20,587 bases of DNA from a virus (taxonomy: Duplodnaviria > Heunggongvirae > Uroviricota > Caudoviricetes): positions 1-20,587 of IMG/VR virus record IMGVR_UViG_3300029862_000030, one strand, 5' to 3'. The translations under genes and the position numbers were made by a program. The notes beneath the pieces are model-generated. The model was not told the origin of the DNA and did not search any database. It saw only the letters and a list, made by a program, of their open reading frames with translations. Shown here one piece after another: positions 266 to 18,434 of the stretch. Numbering within the stretch: position 1 is the stretch's first letter; every line of letters starts with the position of its first letter.

Positions 266-606
266 CAGTTCACCACCTGCTCAATCGTACAGCTGAAATC
301 ACTGTACCGGGCGTTATCCGTGACGCTCCACTCCCGACACACCACCCTCACCGTCCGGTTATGTTTCGGCGGTCGCCACAAAAAGGCACGGTAACCACCA
401 TGCCAGGATAAAAATTCATCCAGCCAGCGCCGGGTTGACTCATCCGTCACCCGGAACACCGCCTGAAACGTCTTCAGTTGAGGATTCAGTCCTGTGGGGC
501 GGCGCTGTTCATAACCGTCACCAAACCGAACCCTCACCACCGACGGTTTCTCACTCACCTGCATCCCTTCACGCGGGACCAGATGCAGCGTTTTTATCTC
601 AGCCAC
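265..606 (-). CDS. Minor tail protein M (lambda gpM-like)
   Basis: 113-aa ORF in the track. VRFGDGY, HGG and the C-terminal EQVVN are shared with lambda gpM as recalled. It sits between the tape measure and L, as in lambda. Confidence 0.8.
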   Translation of the reverse strand: MAEIKTLHLVPREGMQVSEKPSVVRVRFGDGYEQRRPTGLNPQLKTFQAVFRVTDESTRRWLDEFLSWHGGYRAFLWRPPKHNRTVRVVCREWSVTDNARYSDFSCTIEQVVN

Positions 607-3600
607 TCAGCATTCCTCCGTCACGTCGCATGGACAGCATCACCGCCTGCACCCGCTGGTCAATCAGCTGCACAAGACTGCCTGCCGCCTCCGGCCCTAT
701 CTGTCCGTTAGCCCCGTCATTCTGAATGGCGATGTGGTAGACCGGGGAATACACCAGACCGGCGCTGCCGTTCATACTGCCCACCGCGCGTACGCCCAGC
801 GAGCCATCCGCCGCCCGGGTCAGGGGCATAATGGCTTCAGGTCCGGCTTCCCCCATCAGCCCGGCCCCTTTTGCAAACGCAAAGTACGTGGGCGTGTCCA
901 CAATGCTGTTGCTGTACGCACTCAGATTTGCCGATGTGTAAACACCACCTTTTGCGTTTGCCACTGCCCCCGAAATCCATCCGCCGACCGTACCAAGCCA
1001 CCCTCCGGCACCGGAGAGTGATTTCAGTCCGTTAACAATGGCTGCATTCATCAGAATTTTTGAAACTTCCCGGAGAACTGAACTCCCCCAGTTCCTCCAG
1101 TCCACAACATTCCCGGCCAGTGCATCGGAAATATTTGATACCAGCCCGTCCATCGTGGAAACGACAGCATCTGCCGCCTGCGAAGCATAATCGGTGGCAC
1201 TGTCTGCCCAGTTCGTCAGCCCCTCTTTGAGCCCGGCATTCCAGTTACTGCGTAAAGCATCAGCCTTTGCATAATAATCCTGCTGATCGCTGAGACGCTC
1301 TTCCAGATATTTTTTATTCAGCTCTTTCTCCTGTTTCCACAGGGCTTCTTCAATTTCTCCGGCCTGATACTGTCTCAGTAGCTCGTTATTTTTCTGCTCA
1401 AACTCCTGCCGGATGCTCCACATTTCCTGAAGTCGTTCACGCATCCGTGAGCCTTCACCATATCCCAGTAACTGAGCCTCATTTGATGCTCTGACACTGG
1501 CATTACTGTCCGCCAGACTGCTCTCATACGCAGCAAGCTGCTCACGAATCTTTTTCTGGTCGATAAGTGCTGCATTCTGCAAAAGCGTTTTTTTCTGCGC
1601 TTCTGACAGGGTTGATAATTCGCCCTGACTGACCTGATATTTCATCTTAGCCAGTTCAGTATTCTGCCCTGCCAGTGCTATCTGTTCTTTTTGCTGTTTA
1701 ATCAGCCGTTTATAAATATCCTCTGTTTTTTCCGCTTCGGTCTTTTTATGCGCTTTGGGTTTATTTGCCTGGTTATTTCGCCATGCATCCAGTGAGTTAT
1801 TTATATAATTCAGTCTTGCTGTCTGATACGCCTCTCCCACAAAGCCGAGATCATCCGCAGCATAACCCAGGCGGGCACGCTCACGAGCTTCCCCCTTCAG
1901 GCGGGACAGAGCCAGTTCGCGCTCGCTGTTATTCAGTGCGGTCTGCTGTTTATCATCCAGGGTTGCCTGTGGTAGCCGTAACGGTACATTCACCAGCCCC
2001 TGTCGCTGCTGAAGTAATTCATTACCGAGCCCGAGAAGGCGATTAAACTCGGTATGCTGCCCATTCATGATCAACAGGGACTGATACGCTTTGTTTTGTT
2101 CCGCTGCCTGTTGACGGATCAACGCCACCCGTCGCTCCTCCAGCCCGGCAAGCACATCCTGAATGGATTGCGCTTTGCCCTGCATTTGAGTGAGGCGAGA
2201 CTGTTCAACTGCCAGTTGATTTGTTGCTTCTGCAAGCCCTTCTGTGACAGTTTTTACCGACGTCATGTGGTTAATCATAAAACCGTTATCGGTTGTCCAG
2301 CCCGGGTTTGCCAGCACATACTGATAGCCAGCAATTTTTTCCTGTAAGGATTTAATCTTACTTTTCTGCTCGTCAATTAACCTGTTTTGCTCCTTCAGTG
2401 CCTGTCGCGTCTTTTCCTCATTATCTGACGCTTCAGGAAGCGACATTGCCGACGTTTTCTGGCGAATTTCGTCGATTGTTGCGGCATACTGGCGTGCAGA
2501 TTCTCTGGCCTGCTCCTGATTCTGATACATCGTGTACCAGGCCGCAGCCCCCAGCATGACGAGTCCCGGCACACCACCAACCAGCCCCAGCGCGCCACTT
2601 AATAAACGACTCCCCACTGACGTAACATTATTCAGCGTTGTCTGTGCCGCTGTTCTGGCCGCAATATTACGGGTAAGTGACACCTGGGCAGCTGTCAGCT
2701 TCGCTTCTGCTGCGGCCTGCCTTTCGGTACCGCGAGCAGCAACAACCGCCTGTTGCGCACGATAAACCGCCGCACGCGCCCTGGCGGTTGCTATCTGTGT
2801 CCCCCGAAGTTGCACTTCAGCAAGAGCCACTTCGTTTCTGGCTGCAGTAATTAATCCGGCAGTTGCAGATCCAGCAGACGACGCCATATTGCCAAAATAT
2901 CGGGCTACCCCGACGGCAACCAGAGCACCGGCAGCGGTTGCCACGGTGTCAATATTGCCTGCAATACCATTCAGCACACCGGAGAGCGTCTTCGTCACTC
3001 CGCTTGCCTCGTTCGCACCACCAACCCAGGCCATAAAGGCGTTTTCAACTTTGGTTGCAGAGGATGAAACCGTATCAGGCATTGCCGCATATTCATCACG
3101 TAATGCCCCAAGCTGACTAATCAGTGCAGGAACAACCTTATCGGCGGTCAACTTTCCGTTATCCGCCATGGCCTTCAGATCCTTACGGGCAACTCCCATT
3201 CCCGCAGCCAGAGCACGAATAACACGATCGCCGTTCTCATTCACCGAGTTAAACTCTTCACCGCGCAGCACTCCCTGCGCCAGAGCCTGACTGAACTGCG
3301 TGATCACCGAACTGGCTTCTGCTGTACTGGCACCGGATAATTTCAGGCCCGTGGAGATCGCCTCGGTGACTTTCAGTACCTCCTCAGAACTGTAACCATA
3401 CTCCCGCATGGAAGCTGCAGAGCGGGCAAAAAGGCTGGCGTTATCAGAAAAAGCCGTCCCCGTTCTCTGGCTGATCGCCATTAATTCACGCTGTGATGAC
3501 TGAAAATCATCACTGGACTGTGAGGCCTGCTTCAGACGGGCATTTACTGAATTCCACTCATCGGCGAGAGAAATAAGATGACCGGTAGCAAAAGCCCCGG

Positions 3601-3832
3601 CAAATGCCCCCGCCATGTTCAGTGCCGAAGATTTAGCTGTATTTATCTGATCCGTCACTTCTGCCAGTGCACGCCGCATTTCACGGGATGCAGCAGCGGA
3701 CTGTCGGCCTCCGTTCTGCATGGTACGGTAGTAATCCTGCCCCATACGCGAAGCCCGGGAGATCTCTGACTGGAATGACCGGGAATTTGCCGAGATTTTA
3801 ATAATCAGTTCACGTAATGTCGCCACACTCAT
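599..3832 (-). CDS. Tail tape measure protein (lambda gpH-like)
   Basis: 1077-aa ORF with long Ala/Gln-rich, coiled-coil-like low-complexity stretches. The C-terminus (NDGANGQIGPEAA...RDGGMLSG) resembles the lambda gpH C-terminus. It lies directly downstream of the G/GT chaperone pair. Confidence 0.9.
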   Translation of the reverse strand: MSVATLRELIIKISANSRSFQSEISRASRMGQDYYRTMQNGGRQSAAASREMRRALAEVTDQINTAKSSALNMAGAFAGAFATGHLISLADEWNSVNARLKQASQSSDDFQSSQRELMAISQRTGTAFSDNASLFARSAASMREYGYSSEEVLKVTEAISTGLKLSGASTAEASSVITQFSQALAQGVLRGEEFNSVNENGDRVIRALAAGMGVARKDLKAMADNGKLTADKVVPALISQLGALRDEYAAMPDTVSSSATKVENAFMAWVGGANEASGVTKTLSGVLNGIAGNIDTVATAAGALVAVGVARYFGNMASSAGSATAGLITAARNEVALAEVQLRGTQIATARARAAVYRAQQAVVAARGTERQAAAEAKLTAAQVSLTRNIAARTAAQTTLNNVTSVGSRLLSGALGLVGGVPGLVMLGAAAWYTMYQNQEQARESARQYAATIDEIRQKTSAMSLPEASDNEEKTRQALKEQNRLIDEQKSKIKSLQEKIAGYQYVLANPGWTTDNGFMINHMTSVKTVTEGLAEATNQLAVEQSRLTQMQGKAQSIQDVLAGLEERRVALIRQQAAEQNKAYQSLLIMNGQHTEFNRLLGLGNELLQQRQGLVNVPLRLPQATLDDKQQTALNNSERELALSRLKGEARERARLGYAADDLGFVGEAYQTARLNYINNSLDAWRNNQANKPKAHKKTEAEKTEDIYKRLIKQQKEQIALAGQNTELAKMKYQVSQGELSTLSEAQKKTLLQNAALIDQKKIREQLAAYESSLADSNASVRASNEAQLLGYGEGSRMRERLQEMWSIRQEFEQKNNELLRQYQAGEIEEALWKQEKELNKKYLEERLSDQQDYYAKADALRSNWNAGLKEGLTNWADSATDYASQAADAVVSTMDGLVSNISDALAGNVVDWRNWGSSVLREVSKILMNAAIVNGLKSLSGAGGWLGTVGGWISGAVANAKGGVYTSANLSAYSNSIVDTPTYFAFAKGAGLMGEAGPEAIMPLTRAADGSLGVRAVGSMNGSAGLVYSPVYHIAIQNDGANGQIGPEAAGSLVQLIDQRVQAVMLSMRRDGGMLSG

Positions 3833-3842
3833 TCTCCGGACG

Positions 3843-3862
3843 AAAAAAAACCGCCGAAGCGG
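3843..3862 (-). terminator. Candidate intrinsic terminator between the GT chaperone and the tape measure gene
   Basis: Minus-strand reading gives CCGCTTCGGCGG (4-bp GC stem, TTCG loop) followed by T8. It lies in the 40-nt gap between 3873 and 3832. Confidence 0.5.
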
Positions 3863-3872
3863 TTATGTTGAC

Positions 3873-4561
3873 TCACTGAGACACTATTAAAAGCGCGTTT
3901 TCCAGTCCGGCAAATGGATCTGAGACGCCTTCTGTCTGCTCCTGCTCCCACTGAAGAAGCGCATCATTCAGTGGCACTTTGACCCCCTGCGCACCGTAAA
4001 CAGCTGAAACAATCTGGGCAGCCCGGATATCAGCCCGCTCGTCACCCAGCGGGCTGAACCTGTCAAATTCTGCCCACATCATGATTTCTGATGCGGACAT
4101 TTCCCGGCGTAACTCTGACAATGTGCGCCCCATCCTGAGCGCCAGCATCATCAGAAAACGCATCCCCGGAAGCGCTACTTTTTTTTAACCTCGCCGGCAT
4201 CACTGATCAGTTCCAGAGACTGCCGAAGAAGCCGCGCATGCACCGGGCCATACACGGCAATCACCTGTTCACGATCATCCTCTGAAAATACGGGTTGCAG
4301 TCCGGTATCACACAGAACATCAATGAACAGTTCAACATCTGCCTCCAGATTTCGGCGGGCGCGCTCCGCAACGGATAACGGTGTCTCATCATCTTTTGCT
4401 TTAACGATCTCCTGCCAGCGCAACCAGGCTTCTGCAGAAGGTTCCCGTAACACAACCGTTGCTCCCTCCCATTCAGGCACATCAACGGTTTTATGGCGAA
4501 ACCCCGACATCGTTGCCAGTGCCAGATTACGGATATTTTTAGTCATCACATCCATCCTCAT
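3873..4561 (-). CDS. Tail assembly chaperone GT fusion, made by a programmed -1 ribosomal frameshift from G into the T frame
   Basis: The slippery heptamer A_AAA_AAG lies at 4184..4178 (minus strand), just before the G stop TAG (4177..4175). Reading in the -1 frame gives KKVALPG followed by MRFLMMLALRMGRT..., which is exactly the 96-aa ORF 3873..4163 in the track. The frame arithmetic is consistent. Confidence 0.7.
4175..4561 (-). CDS. Tail assembly chaperone G (lambda gpG analog)
   Basis: 128-aa ORF immediately upstream of the tape measure. It ends ...GEVKKK with an A AAA AAG slippery heptamer at its 3' end. Confidence 0.75.
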   Translation of the reverse strand: MRMDVMTKNIRNLALATMSGFRHKTVDVPEWEGATVVLREPSAEAWLRWQEIVKAKDDETPLSVAERARRNLEADVELFIDVLCDTGLQPVFSEDDREQVIAVYGPVHARLLRQSLELISDAGEVKKK

Positions 4562-5265
4562 TAACTGACGGTTACAGTGCAGGAAGTAGAGGTCACTTTG
4601 TTAACCGGGCTTGCTGAATCAGAAATCTCGCAGGTATATGCACCCGCATCACCGGATACTGCCGATGCCTTACTGAACGTTGCCGCCGTCTGTCCGGAAA
4701 CAGGAGAACCACCTTTCTTCCAGACATAAGAATAAGGCGGCATACCACCCGCAGCCTCAACCGCCATTTCAAGTTTCGCTCCGGAAGCAACCCGCAGCGT
4801 GCTTTTTAAATTGGCCTTCACTTTCAGCGGCTCTGTCGTCAGCACAGGTTTACCTTTCAGACGCAGGGAAAACGTTGCAGCCACAACACCATTGGTTCCT
4901 GCAGACCAGGTATGCTGACGCACCTCTGCCATAAAGGTAAATCCGTTGCCTGACGGAAAAATAACTTTAAAGCCATACGTGGTGTCATTGTCATAGGCAC
5001 TGCGCAACGCGTTCTGGGCAGCATTCAGATAAAAGTTGCCTGACATGGAAATCTCTGAAGCAGCCCCAAGGCCGTTAATATTTTCCTGCTCAACAGAACA
5101 CAGCGTGGTGACATCAATATCCTGCTTTTGTCCTGCGGTAAACTGCACCTCTTTGATTGTACAGCTCAGGCCAAGATAGCTGGCAGAATCCAGGGTTTCT
5201 GCTGTTACCGGTGCAGACGAAATCATAATTTTCGTCAGTTGCGAACGCTCAAAATTAGAGGACAT
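4561..5265 (-). CDS. Major tail protein with a C-terminal Ig-like domain
   Basis: The track ORF 4561..5316 was trimmed to the internal ATG at 5265 (MSSNFERSQ...), which has a CAGGAGACGAGT Shine-Dalgarno sequence. It sits between the neck genes and G/GT. The C-terminal ~80 aa (EMAVEAAGGMPPYSYVWKKGG...YTCEISD...TVTVS) look like a bacterial Ig-like domain. Confidence 0.8.
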   Translation of the reverse strand: MSSNFERSQLTKIMISSAPVTAETLDSASYLGLSCTIKEVQFTAGQKQDIDVTTLCSVEQENINGLGAASEISMSGNFYLNAAQNALRSAYDNDTTYGFKVIFPSGNGFTFMAEVRQHTWSAGTNGVVAATFSLRLKGKPVLTTEPLKVKANLKSTLRVASGAKLEMAVEAAGGMPPYSYVWKKGGSPVSGQTAATFSKASAVSGDAGAYTCEISDSASPVNKVTSTSCTVTVS

Positions 5266-5282
5266 ACTCGTCTCCTGAAAAT

Positions 5283-5304
5283 AAAAAAACCCGCCAGCGG
5301 CGGG
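5283..5304 (-). terminator. Candidate intrinsic terminator just upstream of the major tail protein gene
   Basis: Minus-strand reading gives CCCGCC-GCT-GGCGGG (6-bp GC stem) followed by T7. Confidence 0.55.
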
Positions 5305-5324
5305 TGGGTAAATCATTAACGACC

Positions 5325-5669
5325 TCAGGCTATTACCTGAAATTCAAGCGTGGCTCTGCTCAGACGGGAGTCAGGATCATACCCCTGCGTTTTAGAAATA
5401 ACGGAGGGTGCCAGTTTTCTTACCGCATCAAGCGCCTGCTCACGAATATTATCTGCGTCATCAGGTACTGTCGCCCAGACATCGATCTGCACGGTAATTC
5501 TGGATTCAGCCTGCCCATCAAGCACATCAGATGCCGTGTCAGACACCACAGAAAACACCAGCCACGGCGGAGATACCGCAGGCTTTCCCTCCGTCAGCGG
5601 GACCACATAAGGATAAACCTGTCCTCCGGCCAGCTGAGACAACAGGGAATACAGTGTGCCCTCCCTCAT
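5325..5669 (-). CDS. Tail completion / tail terminator-like protein (DUF3168-like; functional analog of lambda gpU)
   Basis: 114-aa ORF immediately upstream of the major tail gene. Size and position are typical for this family; the sequence assignment is from memory and position. Confidence 0.55.
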   Translation of the reverse strand: MREGTLYSLLSQLAGGQVYPYVVPLTEGKPAVSPPWLVFSVVSDTASDVLDGQAESRITVQIDVWATVPDDADNIREQALDAVRKLAPSVISKTQGYDPDSRLSRATLEFQVIA

Positions 5670-6115
5670 TTACTTAAGACCTCATCAATAGCCTGATTCA
5701 TTCGCTGTATGGCAACCTGCGCCGCCAGCTCCTCTGTCGTATCGAAAGCCGGACGAATGAATGGATGCGCGGGCATGTTTATCGTTCCCAGCTCCACAAA
5801 GCGCCAGTAAAATGCATTTCGGGGATCGCTGGCTTTCATGCTGTTATCACTGTTTCCGGTTCGCAGGTTCCGTCCGCGAATGTGGACACCCGAGATAATT
5901 TCCCCCCGACGCTTTGAACGCTGAGTGAGAACAACCACATTTTTCTTCAGTTTCCCGGTTCGCTCCGGCGCACGTTCAACAACTGCATCCCGCATAACTT
6001 CAGCACCGGCACGGGTGGCATCGCGCAGAACCTTATTGTTTTCTGCCCTGCTGAGCGCCTCCAAATCCCGTGCAATATCCGCCAGGCCGGAAAAATCAAG
6101 ACTGAAATCCATCAC
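5666..6115 (-). CDS. HK97 gp10-like neck / tail completion protein
   Basis: 149-aa ORF with a 4-nt overlap onto the neighbouring gene. Position and size match the HK97 gp10 family. Confidence 0.6.
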   Translation of the reverse strand: MMDFSLDFSGLADIARDLEALSRAENNKVLRDATRAGAEVMRDAVVERAPERTGKLKKNVVVLTQRSKRRGEIISGVHIRGRNLRTGNSDNSMKASDPRNAFYWRFVELGTINMPAHPFIRPAFDTTEELAAQVAIQRMNQAIDEVLSK

Positions 6116-6450
6116 ACATTTCCCTTCAGGCTGCAGAGCATTTCAAGCCGGGTAGCGCGTGCATCCGGTATTGGTGGACCTTCTATACCCAGAATCGCGC
6201 CTTTGAATGCACCGGTCAGCACTTTCAGACGTGAAGTCGCTGTCACATCGCGCCGGAATCTCATCCAGACTCTGACCGTAGCCTGAGCGGTTTCTGCTCC
6301 GCCTGAGATTATCTCCCTCCCGCTGATACCCTTAACTTCTGCCCATACGGTAGCTCCCTCCGTCACCGTCTCCACCGGATGCCCTGACGGAGAGCGGGCG
6401 GTGGTGACATTCAGAATAATTACGCGATCACGTAATCTGCCCGCCTGCAT
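6112..6450 (-). CDS. Head closure / head-tail joining protein (HK97 gp9-like)
   Basis: 112-aa ORF between the connector and the gp10-like gene, overlapping its neighbour by 4 nt. Assigned by position and size. Confidence 0.55.
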   Translation of the reverse strand: MQAGRLRDRVIILNVTTARSPSGHPVETVTEGATVWAEVKGISGREIISGGAETAQATVRVWMRFRRDVTATSRLKVLTGAFKGAILGIEGPPIPDARATRLEMLCSLKGNV

Positions 6451-6458
6451 GTCTCCTC

Positions 6459-6776
6459 CTACAAAGGAATAAAACGATAAGGCTCCAGAAGAGAAGAAAA
6501 ACCAAACGGGACTGGTGCCTTGCTGACATCTGAGGAATTTTCCCGGTTTTCGTACCAGTGCCCGACCAGCAACATGAGCGCCAGCAAAACATCATCAGCT
6601 ATAAGCACCCCTTCAGGATCACCTTCCGGCACCGTCTCCTCATAAAGCTTACGGTTGATAAAATTTTCTGCCTTGCGGCAGGCAGCCCGGAAATACAGCA
6701 TCAGTAACTCATCATCAGTTGCATCATCTGTATCAATACGGCACTGCGCCCTGAGTTTTTCCACTATTGCTGCCAT
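6459..6776 (-). CDS. Head-tail connector protein (HK97 gp6-like)
   Basis: The track ORF 6459..6956 was trimmed to the internal ATG at 6776 (MAAIVEKLRAQ...), which has a CAGGAG Shine-Dalgarno sequence 8 nt upstream. The first 60 codons of the track ORF overlap the capsid 3' end and a terminator hairpin. Confidence 0.6.
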   Translation of the reverse strand: MAAIVEKLRAQCRIDTDDATDDELLMLYFRAACRKAENFINRKLYEETVPEGDPEGVLIADDVLLALMLLVGHWYENRENSSDVSKAPVPFGFSSLLEPYRFIPL

Positions 6777-6809
6777 CAGAAACTCCTGCCCGCAACACTG
6801 TGCGGGCAT

Positions 6810-6830
6810 AAAAAAACCGCGTCGGCGCGG
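6810..6830 (-). terminator. Candidate intrinsic terminator directly after the major capsid gene
   Basis: Minus-strand reading gives CCGCG-CCGA-CGCGG followed by T7, 20 nt after the capsid stop codon. Confidence 0.6.
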
Positions 6831-6852
6831 TCTGTAACTGAACAACGAGTGG

Positions 6853-8070
6853 TTATTTGCCAGTGAGCGCCTTGATGGCTGCCACATCTTCCAGCACACA
6901 GTCAAAACGATGGAAAGCCAGAAATGCCACCTGATCAAACTCAGCATAACGCTCAACCAGACGTTTCAGTTCCATATAAGTAACGCGGCGAATGATAAAG
7001 CGGTTGAAATCCCCCAGGAAAATGAATTTTTTTCCGGTACCAATCCCGTCAATAGCCTGATCAATAACATAAGGGATCCCCAGCACAGTAGCCGGCGTAC
7101 CGCCTGCAATATCCGGCAGCCATAACGGGCGTTTCTGTCCATCCTCCATCTCTTCAATAGTCTGCAATGTGGCATCATTGAATGCCCAGCGGTATTTCGG
7201 CCCACCACGATATGCCGGATCAATGGCATGTTTCAGGGCATTCATTTCTTTCCAGGTGAAAGCGGCAGAGGCTGCAGTCTGGATGGTTCCCGTCACCGAC
7301 GCTGCCAGCCCTTTTGGCTGTAACGGTGATCCCGTTCCGGTCCCCTGAACCAGATATTTTGCCTCTCCACGACCAATACGCTGGGCAATACGGTTTGCCA
7401 GATAAGATTCAATATCCACCCCACTGTCCTGGAGCAGCTCATTGGACACACGAATTATTTTTGATGACAGCTTTTTAGCCCCCAGAATAGCGGTCCCGAA
7501 CGTCACATCCTGTTCCGTTGCGGCTGTATTTTCCGCCAGCAGTTCGCCCTCTTCAGTCGTGCCATCAGACGTTGACCAGGTGATATCCTGCCCGGTTGAT
7601 GTGGTCAGAAGTTGCGCCACACTGGCAATCCCGCCATAAGCCTTCATGGTGTCAATGATTTTGTTACGCATCTGCGTGGGCACCGTATATCCGCCCTGAG
7701 AATCCGTTGTTACACTCTGAGCCCGCAGTTCACGCATCAGATTACGCTCTTCAGCATTCAGTTCTGCAAATCCGGCACGCAGAAAACGGTTAAATGCCGC
7801 AGCGCGCTTCTCTTCCACCGCCTTTTTCCCGTTCTCCGCCTCATTATTCTGGCGCTCTTCCGGCCCGGACTCATCCACATATGCCTGATCCTGACGGCGC
7901 AACTCTTCTTCACGGGCGATTTGCTCATCCAGCGCATCCAGCTCAGCTTTCGCCCTGTTCCACTCTGCCCGTTGCTCATCAGTCCATGCGTTATCACCAA
8001 TTTTTTCATGCAGTGCACGCATATCCTTTGCAATGGTGTTTCGTTTTTGCTTCATCTCATGAAGTTTCAT
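6853..8070 (-). CDS. Major capsid protein, HK97 fold, with an N-terminal delta (scaffolding) domain
   Basis: 405-aa ORF. The N-terminal ~100 aa are charged and coiled-coil-like (delta domain), followed by a capsid-like body. It follows the prohead protease, as in HK97. Confidence 0.9.
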   Translation of the reverse strand: MKLHEMKQKRNTIAKDMRALHEKIGDNAWTDEQRAEWNRAKAELDALDEQIAREEELRRQDQAYVDESGPEERQNNEAENGKKAVEEKRAAAFNRFLRAGFAELNAEERNLMRELRAQSVTTDSQGGYTVPTQMRNKIIDTMKAYGGIASVAQLLTTSTGQDITWSTSDGTTEEGELLAENTAATEQDVTFGTAILGAKKLSSKIIRVSNELLQDSGVDIESYLANRIAQRIGRGEAKYLVQGTGTGSPLQPKGLAASVTGTIQTAASAAFTWKEMNALKHAIDPAYRGGPKYRWAFNDATLQTIEEMEDGQKRPLWLPDIAGGTPATVLGIPYVIDQAIDGIGTGKKFIFLGDFNRFIIRRVTYMELKRLVERYAEFDQVAFLAFHRFDCVLEDVAAIKALTGK

Positions 8071-8084
8071 CGTCAGTAGTATCC

Positions 8085-8684
8085 TTATGCATTAAGAAGG
8101 GTCAAAAGACGCTCACGCGCCATTCGTTCGTTAACAGCTTTCTTCAGCGCACCACTCGCCCGCGCTTCCTGCCAGGCTTTCATTGAGCGGACACCAGAGT
8201 CTGCGTCCTGATAGGCCGGATATGTCACCGGGCTGACGTCATACAGACGAGAAATGCGCGTGATTTCCCGGATAACAATCCCCTCGTCGTCTTCATACCA
8301 GCTCTCTCCGTCACGGGCGACACGAAACGCGAACGAGGACTGATTAATGTCACCACGCAACATTGGAGACAGCACCAGGTCACAAATAGTCGGAGTATCC
8401 GGTGCAACAATGTCATAACGTAAACCGCGTTCATCCACCGACAATGACAACGTGCCGGCAGAACTTCGTCCGAGAATGAAATTAGGATCATGATTAAACA
8501 AGCCACGTACATCATCATTCAGTACATCATCAAAAGCCCCCGGCTTGATGATTTCACGAAATCCCCACAGAGGTTCTGAACGACTGTTAAATACCGAGCC
8601 ATAGCCCAGAATGTGGGTCGGGGCATTATCATATTGTTCCGCCCGCACCTCCCCGCTGTAACAGCGCGTTTCACGGTCATTCAT
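8085..8684 (-). CDS. Prohead maturation protease (HK97 gp4-like, S78 family)
   Basis: 199-aa ORF between portal and capsid, with the typical size and position. Confidence 0.85.
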   Translation of the reverse strand: MNDRETRCYSGEVRAEQYDNAPTHILGYGSVFNSRSEPLWGFREIIKPGAFDDVLNDDVRGLFNHDPNFILGRSSAGTLSLSVDERGLRYDIVAPDTPTICDLVLSPMLRGDINQSSFAFRVARDGESWYEDDEGIVIREITRISRLYDVSPVTYPAYQDADSGVRSMKAWQEARASGALKKAVNERMARERLLTLLNA

Positions 8685-12519: not shown

Positions 12520-13035
12520 ATGGATAAAACCAGAAAATATGACAGAGCCTTACAACTTGAAATCCTCAATGCCCTTATAGATTGCGCGCCTAACTCTTTA
12601 AACAAGGCACAGGAGCGAGACCTCATTGAGAAGTTTGACAGTTACGATCACTTTGTGGCGTGCATGTTATACCTTGAAATGCATGGTCTCGTTTCCACCC
12701 CCTTCATACGCAGTGACACCATGGCTGGCGTTGAGTTTATCTTCTGTGCCCCTAACTGCTACATTACAGAAAAAGGAATTGATTTTCTTCTCGATGATGG
12801 CGGCTTAAGTGCGATCCTTAAAGTTCAGACCTTTCGGTTACACAGTGACACGATTGTTGCCCTTGAGGATATAATCCGTGTCGCAAATATATCTGAAGAT
12901 CAGAAGAAGGGATTGATTTCAAAACTCCGAGAGCTTCCGGGAGACGCCATAAAACATTTGACCCTACAGTTACTGACTCAGGGGGTTCTGAATCTGCCGA
13001 ACGCACTTCGACTAATTCAAACAACCCTCCAGTAG
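12520..13035 (+). CDS. Hypothetical protein, unknown function; AT-rich gene on the opposite strand to the late operon
   Basis: 171-aa plus-strand ORF with a GGAG Shine-Dalgarno sequence 9 nt upstream of the ATG. Base composition is visibly more AT-rich than the flanking late genes. It is inserted between the HNH endonuclease and the small terminase gene. Confidence 0.6.
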   Translation: MDKTRKYDRALQLEILNALIDCAPNSLNKAQERDLIEKFDSYDHFVACMLYLEMHGLVSTPFIRSDTMAGVEFIFCAPNCYITEKGIDFLLDDGGLSAILKVQTFRLHSDTIVALEDIIRVANISEDQKKGLISKLRELPGDAIKHLTLQLLTQGVLNLPNALRLIQTTLQ

Positions 13036-15310: not shown

Positions 15311-15338
15311 GCCCGTATCCATATGCGGGCTTTTTTTT
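15311..15338 (+). terminator. Candidate plus-strand intrinsic terminator
   Basis: Plus-strand hairpin GCCCGTAT..ATATGCGGGC (imperfect) followed by T8. Confidence 0.45.
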
Positions 15339-15344
15339 GCATGT

Positions 15345-15374
15345 AAAAAGGCCCCAACACATGTGCGTGGGGCC
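15345..15374 (-). terminator. Candidate minus-strand intrinsic terminator upstream of the holin (possible tR'-like element)
   Basis: Minus-strand reading gives a GGCCCCA/TGGGGCC stem around an 11-nt loop containing the palindrome CACATGTG, followed by TTTTTAC. Confidence 0.45.
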
Positions 15375-15574
15375 TGAGAGTATACATGGTTTCAGTCAAC
15401 TGCATGGTGCCGGGTGCCTCCCGGTGAATTCAGTACCAGCACCTGAATCCGCGATTATCCCATATACCTACTCGCTGATTGCCCATCCGCACAGGGGGAT
15501 TCACCATGCCAGTTTCTTTTAACAAACTCCCCGCAAAACAGACAACTGTCAACCGTCTGAATTGTGAGACATTT

Positions 15575-15904: not shown

Positions 15905-16243
15905 TCATCCGTTCTGGCTGACTAAATCCTGTACTTCCCGAACCGTCTGCTCAAAACGTTCAGTCTCCAGCTCAACGCCAATTGCACGACGCCCGAGCGC
16001 CAGTGCCGCTTTCACTGTCGAACCCGACCCCATGAAAAAATCTGCAATCAGGTCACCCGGACGACTGCTAGCGCTGATTATCTGCTGCAGCATTTCTGCC
16101 GGTTTTTCGCACGGATGTTTCCCGGGATAGAACTGCACCGGTTTATGCGTCCAGACATCGGTATACGGCACCTGCGCCGTCACGCCAAAATACCGCCGCA
16201 GTCGGCATTCACAACCACCAGCGCATTTAACGTTCAGGCACAA
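15905..16243 (-). pseudogene. 5'-truncated DNA N6-adenine/N4-cytosine methyltransferase remnant (C-terminal part only)
   Basis: The 112-aa ORF contains HPCEKP (the HPTQKP-type motif) and DFFMGSGST (the FxGxG AdoMet-binding motif) near its C-terminus. These are the C-terminal half of beta-class amino-methyltransferases. No DPPY motif or N-terminal half is present; the reading frame runs into the AT-rich region upstream of the porin. Confidence 0.6.
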
Positions 16244-16693
16244 AAAAACCCGCTCATCGGCGGGTTTAAGCTGTGTGACGAAGTAACTACTCTTAACAGC
16301 ATAACCAATTTTTTACGTACGTAAACTACTAAATGATATTTGTGAGAATGCCACCGAGTGTTCAAAACACCACCACAAATACATAAGAAAATTTCAACAA
16401 ATAACCAATTAATAATTTCAGATGTTATTTTTAGTTTGTTTAAATTAAGCTAAAGAATTATAGACTGCTTATAAATAAGTTCCATTAATATAAATTAGCT
16501 AATAGATTTATTTTTGTTCAAACAAGAGCCATAAATAGGATTAGATAGAAAAGGTTCAGATAAAAATAGAGATCTACTTCACAAATTAAATGAGAAACTA
16601 AAACTTACATCTTGAAATAATCACATTGATTAGATGAATATTTATCGCGCAGTGACATCATTTTTTAATAATAGTTCAAAAAAAGGGTGTACA

Positions 16694-17776
16694 ATGAAAA
16701 AATTAACAGTGGCAATTTCTGCTGTAGCTGCATCAGTACTGATGGCGATGTCTGCTCAGGCAGCTGAAATTTATAATAAAGACAGTAACAAGCTGGATCT
16801 ATACGGGAAAGTTAATGCCAAGCACTACTTCTCCTCTAATGATGCAGATGATGGTGATACTACTTATGCCCGTCTTGGCTTCAAAGGTGAAACCCAAATC
16901 AACGATCAACTGACTGGTTTCGGTCAGTGGGAATATGAATTCAAAGGCAACCGCGCTGAATCTCAAGGTTCTTCCAAAGACAAAACCCGTCTTGCATTTG
17001 CAGGCCTGAAATTTGGTGATTACGGCTCAATCGATTACGGCCGTAACTACGGTGTAGCATACGACATCGGTGCGTGGACTGACGTTCTGCCAGAATTCGG
17101 TGGTGATACCTGGACCCAAACAGATGTGTTCATGACTGGTCGCACTACTGGTGTTGCAACTTATCGTAACAACGACTTCTTTGGTCTGGTCGATGGCCTG
17201 AACTTTGCTGCTCAGTATCAGGGTAAAAATGACCGCACTGACGTAACTGAAGCCAATGGTGATGGTTTCGGTTTCTCCACTACTTATGAGTATGAAGGAT
17301 TCGGCGTGGGTGCAACCTATGCTAAATCAGATCGCACTGACGGTCAGGTCGCCTATGGTAAGAGCAAATTCAATGCCTCCGGCAAAAATGCGGAAGTATG
17401 GGCTGCAGGCCTGAAATATGATGCGAACAATATCTATCTGGCTACCACATATTCTGAAACTCAGAATATGACCGTTTTTGGTAATAACCATATTGCAAAC
17501 AAAGCACAAAACTTTGAAGCAGTAGCACAATATCAGTTTGACTTCGGTCTGCGCCCATCTGTTGCTTACCTTCAGTCAAAAGGTAAAGACCTTGGTGTTC
17601 ATGGTGACCGAGACTTAGTCAAGTATGTCGATGTCGGTGCTACTTACTACTTTAATAAAAACATGTCCACTTTTGTTGATTACAAAATCAACTTAATTGA
17701 CGATAGTAAGTTTACCAAAACAGCTGATATTGATACCGACGACATCGTCGCTGTAGGTCTGGTTTACCAGTTCTAA
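16694..17776 (+). CDS. nmpC: Outer membrane general porin, NmpC/OmpC/OmpD family
   Basis: The track ORF 16634..17776 contains the signal peptide [23 protein letters not shown] followed by [16 protein letters not shown] and a C-terminal ...VGLVYQF beta-barrel signature, matching NmpC as recalled. The start was trimmed to the MKKL Met; my nucleotide count in that line disagrees with the track frame by 1 nt, so the start is good to about 1 nt. It is on the opposite strand to the phage late genes and preceded by about 370 nt of very AT-rich DNA. Confidence 0.9.
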
Positions 17777-17779
17777 TCT

Positions 17780-17950
17780 GATTACGAAAAAGATATGTTG
17801 CGGGAGGCGTTGCCTCCCCAACATATAAGTGGCTCCCTCAAGCCACTTCCTTTAGAAGCACAACCTTGCTTCTAACTATATAAACCTTCTGTTATATATT
17901 ACCCTTTATTTTTGGGGGCGTCTCAACGCCCCATTTTTAATAATTTTTAG
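17780..17950 (+). ncRNA. Candidate structured 3' region / small RNA downstream of the porin (IpeX-like position)
   Basis: Three successive plus-strand hairpins (GGGAGGC-GTT-GCCTCCC, AAGTGGCT-CCCTCA-AGCCACTT, GAAGC..GCTTC) followed by an intrinsic terminator (GGGGCG-TCTCAA-CGCCCC then ATTTTTAATAATTTTT). In E. coli K-12 DLP12 the IpeX sRNA is reported downstream of nmpC; I cannot verify identity from sequence alone. Confidence 0.35.
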
Positions 17951-17965
17951 TAAACAATTGGCATA

Positions 17966-18349
17966 TTAATTAGAGTTATTAACAACGATATCCATCTCTA
18001 ACTGGATATCTAATGCCATTAACATCCCTTCAATTATGCCCTCAGCCTTCTGTAACCTTTTCCCGATATAACCATCAGAGCAGCAATGCTTACCTGCCAG
18101 TGACATGAATGTCATACCGACTACATAATAATCTACTAATAAATCGTGCAAATCGCTGTTGTTCTTTTTCAGACGGGCCATGCACCCGCAAATGATCATA
18201 GCGTCATCGTCACAACATTGCGGGCGAGATTTTACTTTTGAAGTAATTAATCCCTTAAAACCGGCGGCAATGGACGACCAGGTCACATCTTCATGATTAT
18301 TAGCCGCCCACGCTCCCCAACGCTCAAGAACCATCTGAATATCACGCAT
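17966..18349 (-). CDS. Late-gene antiterminator Q (DLP12 QuuD-like)
   Basis: The 127-aa product from the ATG at 18349 ([22 protein letters not shown]...) matches my recollection of E. coli QuuD. The track ORF starts 5 codons earlier at an alternative TTG. It lies downstream of rusA and ylcG, as in DLP12. Confidence 0.8.
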
Positions 18350-18434
18350 CAACTTACTCCACAAAAATCAGACCAGAACGCCAATTACAAGCAAAAATCA
18401 ACAAAACAGTATTAGTTGATTGTTATCTCTGACT

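Follow-up and report, generated by a model that had tools for sequence, protein, structure and literature searches.

Terminators inside late operons are an already known and ordinary kind of phage feature, one that genome papers call common and of unknown role. Here we examine three terminator-type hairpins, T1, T2 and T3, in the late structural operon of a lambdoid Escherichia coli prophage, part of which makes up IMG/VR virus record IMGVR_UViG_3300029862_000030 (positions 1 to 20,587; this whole stretch of 20,587 nucleotides (nt) is called the window). The closest described system is phage HK97, whose late-operon terminators are given in GenBank record AF069529 (Juhala et al. 2000) as ‘putative terminator’ features: one follows the major head gene, gene 5, one lies in the gp11/gp12 gap, one follows gp12, and one stands between the moron gene 15 and the tape measure. 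A moron is an added gene equipped with a promoter and terminator of its own, and the founding example, HK97 gene 15, lies exactly in the slot that T3 closes in the window (PMC3594210).

Terminators of this kind are also described in less closely related phages. In phage L, one is predicted at the end of the procapsid block, within a late operon served by a single promoter; partial termination or the halting of spurious, non-antiterminated transcription was offered as its role, which was stated to be unknown (PMC8022706). The late-gene clusters of SPP1 are bounded by stem-loop terminators (PMC6316719). Phage L and SPP1 thus resemble the window in having a predicted Rho-independent terminator that closes the procapsid block of an operon with a single antiterminated promoter, but their sequences are unrelated, their virion modules differ, and the papers present no comparative or covariation evidence. 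In T7, terminator T-phi stands directly after capsid gene 10, and partial read-through there balances expression. Many terminators of phage LUZ7 are likewise leaky, which tunes expression (PMC9163698). These last two systems share with T1 a terminator directly after the major capsid gene; unlike the window, they act on phage RNA polymerase or unmodified host polymerase and not within a Q-antiterminated transcript.

Compared with HK97, the window has three terminators at the same syntenic positions in a homologous gene order, and the two major tail proteins (gp12 in HK97) are 73% identical. T2, which separates the tail completion gene gp17 from the major tail gene, matches HK97 site 6692-6719 base for base, from the CCCGCC/GGCGGG stem through the T run and ribosome-binding site to the start codon. 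T3, just before the tape measure gene, has its positional counterpart at HK97 8398-8422, behind moron gene 15, although the two stems differ; T1, just after the capsid gene, is unrelated in sequence to the HK97 capsid terminator. HK97 further differs in having an extra hairpin after gp12, in having its slot filled by gene 15, and in lacking a counterpart of hp2, a second hairpin that directly follows the T1 U tract in the window. A hairpin after the major tail gene is missing from the window because the gap to the next gene is just 14 nt.

All three hairpins lie exactly where a reading made from the sequence alone (the sequence-only reading) had placed them, on the coding (minus) strand and each in an intergenic gap (Table 1). 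T1 begins 20 nt past the capsid stop codon (TAA 6855-6853); its core, CCGCG-CCGA-CGCGG at 6830-6817, extends to an 8-bp stem with a 4-nt loop and a free energy (dG) of -11.2 kcal/mol. The stronger hp2 (-18.5 kcal/mol) adjoins the ribosome-binding site of the connector gene (GGAG 6786-6783, ATG 6776). T2 has the core CCCGCC-GCT-GGCGGG at 5304-5290, with a 7-bp stem, a 3-nt loop and a dG of -12.6 kcal/mol, and its T7 run at 5289-5283 continues as ATTTT (U7AU4). It stands between the gp17 stop (TGA 5327-5325) and the Shine-Dalgarno sequence (5275-5272) and ATG (5265-5263) of the major tail gene, so that ‘right before the major tail gene’, as it had been described, is accurate. T3 (hairpin 3864-3849, T8 at 3850-3843) has a 6-bp stem, a UUCG tetraloop and a dG of -8.5 kcal/mol, and lies in the gap that runs from the stop of chaperone gene T (TGA 3875-3873) to the start of the tape measure gene (ATG 3832 or GTG 3826). 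T2 and T3 lead straight into a ribosome-binding site; a second hairpin occurs at T1 only. The free-energy check that the sequence-only reading had called for gave values ordinary for E. coli terminators, with T3 at the weak end. A search with Rfam at gathering thresholds returned nothing at T1-T3 or hp2, and only three tRNAs and an STnc100 element in the window.

A lax built-in scan found 30 terminator-like sites in the window against 19.0 +/- 4.1 in shuffled sequence. Because this enrichment was only modest, we applied a stricter discriminant d in the style of d'Aubenton-Carafa, which combines hairpin energy per length with a position-weighted T run and scores every T run. T1, T2 and T3 scored 21.4, 50.9 and 22.2, ranking seventh, first and sixth in the window, where 7 sites exceed d = 20 against a mean of 0.075 in 40 dinucleotide shuffles. 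In 297 kb from 23 distinct related loci, the sense strand had 50 sites with d > 10 and the antisense strand 13, a roughly fourfold bias; with d > 20 there were 28 against 6. The same scan recovered all annotated late-strand sites of HK97 except the post-gp12 hairpin, which has no T run, and picked up comparable hairpins within the late operon of lambda, among them one immediately ahead of capsid gene E and one between I and J. Another terminator-like hairpin, with a T5 run (385-404, minus strand; d = 12.8, dG -11.8) lies within the gpM-like tail gene (265-606) of the window.

T1-T3 thus combine a GC stem-loop, an uninterrupted U tract, a place on the transcribed strand in noncoding sequence and an above-chance score. 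They stand where one functional block of the operon gives way to the next, in the order head shell, neck, tail tube with chaperones, and tape measure with tip.

T2 and T3 travel with the HK97-type tail module. Among 35 distinct upstream sequences (from 87 loci), 34 carry T2, in 11 stem-loop versions with at least four stems whose arms change together (CCCGCC/GGCGGG, CCCGGC/GCCGGG, CCACC/GGTGG and GCTGC/GCAGC among them). Nearly all relatives have a T3-type hairpin shortly before the tape measure start, with a 5' arm of ACCGC, ACCTGC, CCCGC or GCTCGC and a 3' arm to match.

Some relatives differ from the window in the neighbourhood of T3. With the slot before the hairpin empty, as here, about 728 nt separate the stop of the major tail gene from the start of the tape measure gene; the distance grows to 984-1252 nt when the slot is filled by an extra AT-rich gene on the same strand. 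The inserts, namely HK97 gene 15 and genes encoding a zinc-ribbon membrane protein or lipoproteins (LFFISAC lipobox), belong to at least four PHROG families of unknown function (8436, 2320 and 6823 in relatives; HK97 gp15 is PHROG 5031). In every filled case (L052, L064, L094, L109, L114, L003, L028 and HK97), a T3-type hairpin is retained downstream of the insert, so that it follows an added gene as the terminator of a moron does. T3 marks a slot into which small accessory (moron) genes are recurrently inserted; it shares with known moron terminators its place between chaperone and tape measure genes, and small membrane protein or lipoprotein genes precede the same hairpin in relatives. The window departs from moron systems in having neither an inserted gene nor a promoter in the slot, the T3 stem beginning 8 nt past the gene T stop. 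No moron is associated with T1 or T2 in any relative examined.

These observations divide the proposal of the sequence-only reading that the hairpins block transcription arriving from embedded genes. It has comparative support for T3 alone, through the relatives in which small genes lie directly upstream of the same hairpin, the slot being empty here. Neither T1 nor T2 has a same-strand embedded gene upstream: the embedded minus-strand tRNAs and STnc100 element have their own terminators about 8 kb upstream, and the porin gene and a 171-amino-acid open reading frame (ORF) lie on the opposite strand.

T1 was followed in 31 loci of other Enterobacterales (Symbiopectobacterium, Citrobacter, Kosakonia, Kluyvera, Buttiauxella, Edwardsiella, Lonsdalea, Serratia, Proteus, Morganella, Providencia, Mixta and Rouxiella) whose capsids are 66-79% identical to that of the window, giving 24 distinct versions. 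Every fetched locus with capsid-downstream sequence has a hairpin and T run after the capsid gene, and all 24 versions have the T1-type arrangement, CCGC-loop-GCGG followed by U6-U8 (mostly U7). The CCGC/GCGG stem is invariant, as are five columns of the T run; two more are nearly so, the exceptions being a C at the last position in L003 and a gap at the first in L029. Loops vary, mostly among stable tetraloops (GAAA, GUAA, GAGA, UUCG).

The second hairpin is equally persistent. It is kept in 24 of 24 distinct relatives, with dG from -15 to -24 kcal/mol, and shows two compensatory pairs by RNAalifold on an unbiased MAFFT alignment. A stem-anchored alignment, biased towards the structure because it is fitted to it, yields three compensatory pairs with 96.7% of cells paired; its covariation score was reached by 0 of 500 shuffles. 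The consensus fold (RNAalifold) additionally pairs the U tract with purines of the ribosome-binding site. The same T1-hp2 sequence links capsid genes to two classes of connector, 37-45% or 50-66% identical to the one in the window.

We considered whether the motif GCGGTTTTTTTRTGCCYG, which runs from T1 into hp2, is specific to the capsid module, and rejected this: just 26 of 120 matches in viral contigs (L116-L235) follow a capsid homolog. The other 94 are a generic terminator followed by a ribosome-binding site, in contexts unrelated to capsid genes. We therefore make no sequence-family claim beyond the capsid-linked version. The layout ‘GC hairpin - U7 - RUGCCUGGAG - about 5 nt - ATG’ recurs very often in intergenic positions of viral contigs that have no relation to this capsid.

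In aggregate, compensating stems, the kept U tract and orientation, and positions fixed at module borders show purifying selection. Judged from their sequences, T1-T3 appear to be genuine Rho-independent terminator modules, each a GC hairpin with a perfect run of seven or eight U residues, kept by selection. Retention of the U tract points to a function that needs one, for instance termination; a hairpin that served as a stabiliser alone could do without it. Anatomy, orientation bias and U-tract retention together argue that the selected function is intrinsic termination.

The operon in which the hairpins lie is downstream of a Q antiterminator gene (PF06530) on the same strand, and the description of the hairpins as intrinsic-terminator-type elements on the transcribed strand of such an operon holds. 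Structures of the antiterminator Q21 with RNA polymerase have been solved; at the RNA exit channel Q21 acts as a nozzle and blocks terminator hairpin formation. The Q protein of the window is distantly related to Q21, matching structure chains 6P18 and 6JNX (E 1.2e-6), and by analogy we infer that Q-loaded polymerase would read through T1-T3. The stretch from Q to the lysis genes contains four or more additional strong terminator-like sites, so the late operon could hardly be expressed without processive antitermination. A strong hairpin at 17825-17794 on the minus strand (dG -19.7, T5 run), which together with an AT-rich stretch lies about 140 nt past the Q stop, is a candidate for the promoter-proximal terminator (tR') of the late promoter; neither a promoter nor a Q-binding element was identified.

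We consider it probable, with moderate confidence, that T1-T3 stop unmodified polymerase at module boundaries, which for T3 is the moron-terminator role seen in relatives, and that protected 3' ends arise as a by-product. In the repressed prophage, ordinary RNA polymerase from leaky or spurious initiation, or in relatives from moron transcripts, would stop at these sites, which would keep unscheduled transcription from passing from one block to the next. After induction, Q-modified polymerase from the late promoter would allow no hairpin in its RNA exit channel and would read on. Residual termination, or RNase cleavage in the U-rich spacer, could then leave upstream messages, notably that of the capsid, ending in a protective 3' hairpin.

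Several points weigh against such insulation. For this phage and HK97 alike we infer every functional step, and our literature search found no usable direct 3'-end mapping of the lambda or HK97 late operons. Neither a same-strand embedded gene nor a convincing promoter lies upstream of T1, T2 or T3 in the window, so the transcription to be blocked has a hypothetical source; promoter-like matches in the window are below chance (13 vs 20.5 expected). Virion structural proteins are not obviously toxic, so a benefit from insulation is not evident. The T3 stem is weak, at -8.5 kcal/mol. Finally, the hairpins must be dispensable at least sometimes, since T3 is missing in Proteus and Providencia relatives (L017, L021) and one T2 copy is degraded (L064). 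A search close behind the hairpins for promoters that would make terminator-promoter pairs gave just one 9/12 match, within the tape measure start.

Other functions would also fit parts of this pattern. The hairpins could be leaky attenuators during lytic growth, with Q-modified polymerase stopping modestly at each site and the resulting stepwise drop in mRNA setting ratios such as much capsid to little connector, or much chaperone to little tape measure. T1 does follow the gene of the most abundant virion protein and T3 does precede that of a few-copy protein. Long-read transcriptomics found most terminators of Pseudomonas phage LUZ7 to be less than 50% efficient, the authors noting that T7 expression is balanced by inefficient terminators (PMC9163698), and partial termination is one possible role listed for phage L (PMC8022706). 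We nevertheless find attenuation unlikely: T2 is placed the wrong way round, after the gene of a low-copy completion protein and before that of the abundant major tail protein, and the best internal hairpin of lambda likewise stands just before capsid gene E. Q-type antitermination is, moreover, generally highly efficient. Lambda late-protein ratios were reportedly put down mainly to translation initiation (Sampson et al., PNAS, 1988), which also counts against attenuation. Alternatively, the U-rich spacer could be a target of RNase E, with T1 guarding the capsid 3' end and hp2 guarding the downstream 5' end or masking the ribosome-binding site. The two-hairpin T1 layout kept in 24 of 24 relatives, the compensatory pairs of hp2, and the consensus pairing of U tract with ribosome-binding-site purines speak for such RNA processing or stability elements, but a second hairpin accompanies T1 only and the anatomy of all three sites is exactly that of terminators, which makes this quite unlikely as the general explanation. 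It is compatible with termination at module boundaries and does not exclude it, and is attractive for the T1-hp2 pair.

A role in translation, in which a U-rich tract 5-15 nt before the ribosome-binding site acts as an S1-binding enhancer and the hairpin exposes the tract or uncouples upstream ribosomes, would account for the U7-8 placed directly before the major tail and tape measure ribosome-binding sites at T2 and T3, and for the recurrence of ‘hairpin-U7-RUGCCUGGAG-N5-ATG’ in many unrelated viral contigs, with 94 of 120 matches outside a capsid context. It is very improbable all the same: hp2 separates the T1 U tract from the ribosome-binding site, the low-copy tape measure protein needs no enhancer, and S1 binding needs no GC hairpin with compensatory evolution. 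Hardly probable at all is the possibility that the hairpins are neutral relics, ends of once-separate operons or lost morons that are harmless under Q, or DNA-level junctions that aid module exchange by recombination. Their coincidence with functional module borders, the joining of capsid genes to two connector classes by one T1-hp2 sequence, and the gain and loss of morons beside T3 would suit this view. Against it, compensatory stems, strict T-run retention and a single orientation over wide divergence point to selection on RNA structure and not on DNA, and the single mosaic breakpoint seen (~6461) falls at a gene boundary without a hairpin.

For T1 we tentatively raise a further possibility, which we regard as rather doubtful: that T1-hp2 is a conserved cis-acting RNA module of the HK97-family head block, extending from Escherichia to Proteus and Symbiopectobacterium. 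The capsid message would be capped by a terminator or processing hairpin, while hp2, lengthened where the U tract pairs with the ribosome-binding site, would throttle or time connector translation, so that the ratio of ~400 capsid to 12 connector subunits might be set at the RNA level. The idea of a 3' stabiliser, which the sequence-only reading had offered beside that of blocking embedded genes, plausibly suits T1, given its place directly after the capsid gene and before a second conserved hairpin. Both of its functional ideas essentially restate speculation published for phage L (PMC8022706); the interpretation was reasonable, yet its embedded-gene argument does not apply to this prophage.

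The small additions made here are comparative evidence for selection and the conserved hp2. Their significance is modest: the view of late operons is unchanged, and the hairpins are reasonable experimental targets.

The 3.3-kb core around the hairpins is found in 951 of 5426 complete E. coli genomes and is 97-99% identical to isolated phages such as vB_EcoS-689R5, PhiR49_2 and Evi. Late genes lie on the minus strand. The order begins with Q, the opposite-strand porin, a truncated DNA methylase, three tRNAs, the STnc100-type small RNA (sRNA) and the holin/endolysin/spanin genes; it continues with an HNH endonuclease, the opposite-strand 171-amino-acid ORF, the small and large terminase, portal, protease and capsid, and ends with the connector, head closure, gp10, gp17, major tail protein, chaperones G and T, and tape measure. 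Coordinates are collected in Table 1.

Table 1. Features of the window, and inserts in the T3-adjacent slot of related loci
Feature	Coordinates	Strand	Remarks
T1	6810..6833	-	Extended stem 6833-6814 plus U7 at 6816-6810
hp2	6787..6808	-	UGCCCGCA...UGCGGGCA; directly 3' of T1 U tract
T2	5278..5305	-	ACCCGCC-GCT-GGCGGGT (5305-5289) plus UUUUUUUAUUUU
T3	3843..3864	-	AACCGC-UUCG-GCGGUU plus U8
Site with d > 20	15600-15583	-	After tRNAs
Site with d > 20	16264-16249	-	After methylase fragment
Site with d > 20	15311-15330	+	
Site with d > 20	17915-17932	+	~140 nt beyond porin stop
Slot inserts in relatives	L052 3846-4336; L064 3846-4345; L109 3846-4370; L114 3858-4454; L003 10142-10756; L028 10075-10531	same strand	
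Major capsid gene	6853..8070	-	HK97 family, PF05065; upstream of T1
Head-tail connector gene	6459..6776	-	Downstream of T1 and hp2
Tail completion gene gp17	5325..5669	-	PF11367; upstream of T2
Major tail protein gene	4561..5265	-	C-terminal Ig domain; downstream of T2
Tail assembly chaperone gene G	4175-4546	-	Upstream of T3
Tail assembly chaperone gene T	3873-4163	-	Upstream of T3
Tape measure gene	599..3832	-	Downstream of T3; RefSeq start GTG 3826
Q antiterminator gene	17966..18364	-	PF06530, E 3.5e-53
OmpC/NmpC-type porin gene, complete	16634-17776	+	PF00267, E 1e-150; between Q and late genes
STnc100 sRNA, full-length Rfam match	15339-15538	-	133 bits (gathering score 47); between phage tRNAs and holin
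DNA methyltransferase remnant, C-terminal part alone	15905-16243	-	PF01555
171-amino-acid ORF, reverse-oriented embedded gene	12520-13035	+	phrog_3983; between HNH endonuclease and small terminase

Several features between Q and the structural genes deserve mention. The 380-amino-acid ORF on the plus strand at 16634-17776, which matched nearly all E. coli genomes, was considered as an insertion sequence (IS) transposase and rejected, its Pfam match being to a porin; given its opposite orientation, this gene must be crossed antisense by the late transcript. The STnc100 element closes with its own terminator-like hairpin (15374-15350). A full 1050-bp methyltransferase gene occupies the position of the remnant in the related prophage L001, and the 171-amino-acid ORF has no Pfam match.

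The analysis also confirmed where the connector and major tail genes truly start. The listed long ORFs 6459-6956 and 4561-5316, which span T1 and T2, are artefacts, since in RefSeq and in homologs these genes begin at 6776 and 5265. In the tape measure ORF, the first ATG (3832) is just 1 nt from the ribosome-binding site GGAG; the RefSeq start, GTG 3826, has a normal 7-nt spacing and gives an N-terminus that agrees with relatives (region 3824-3837).

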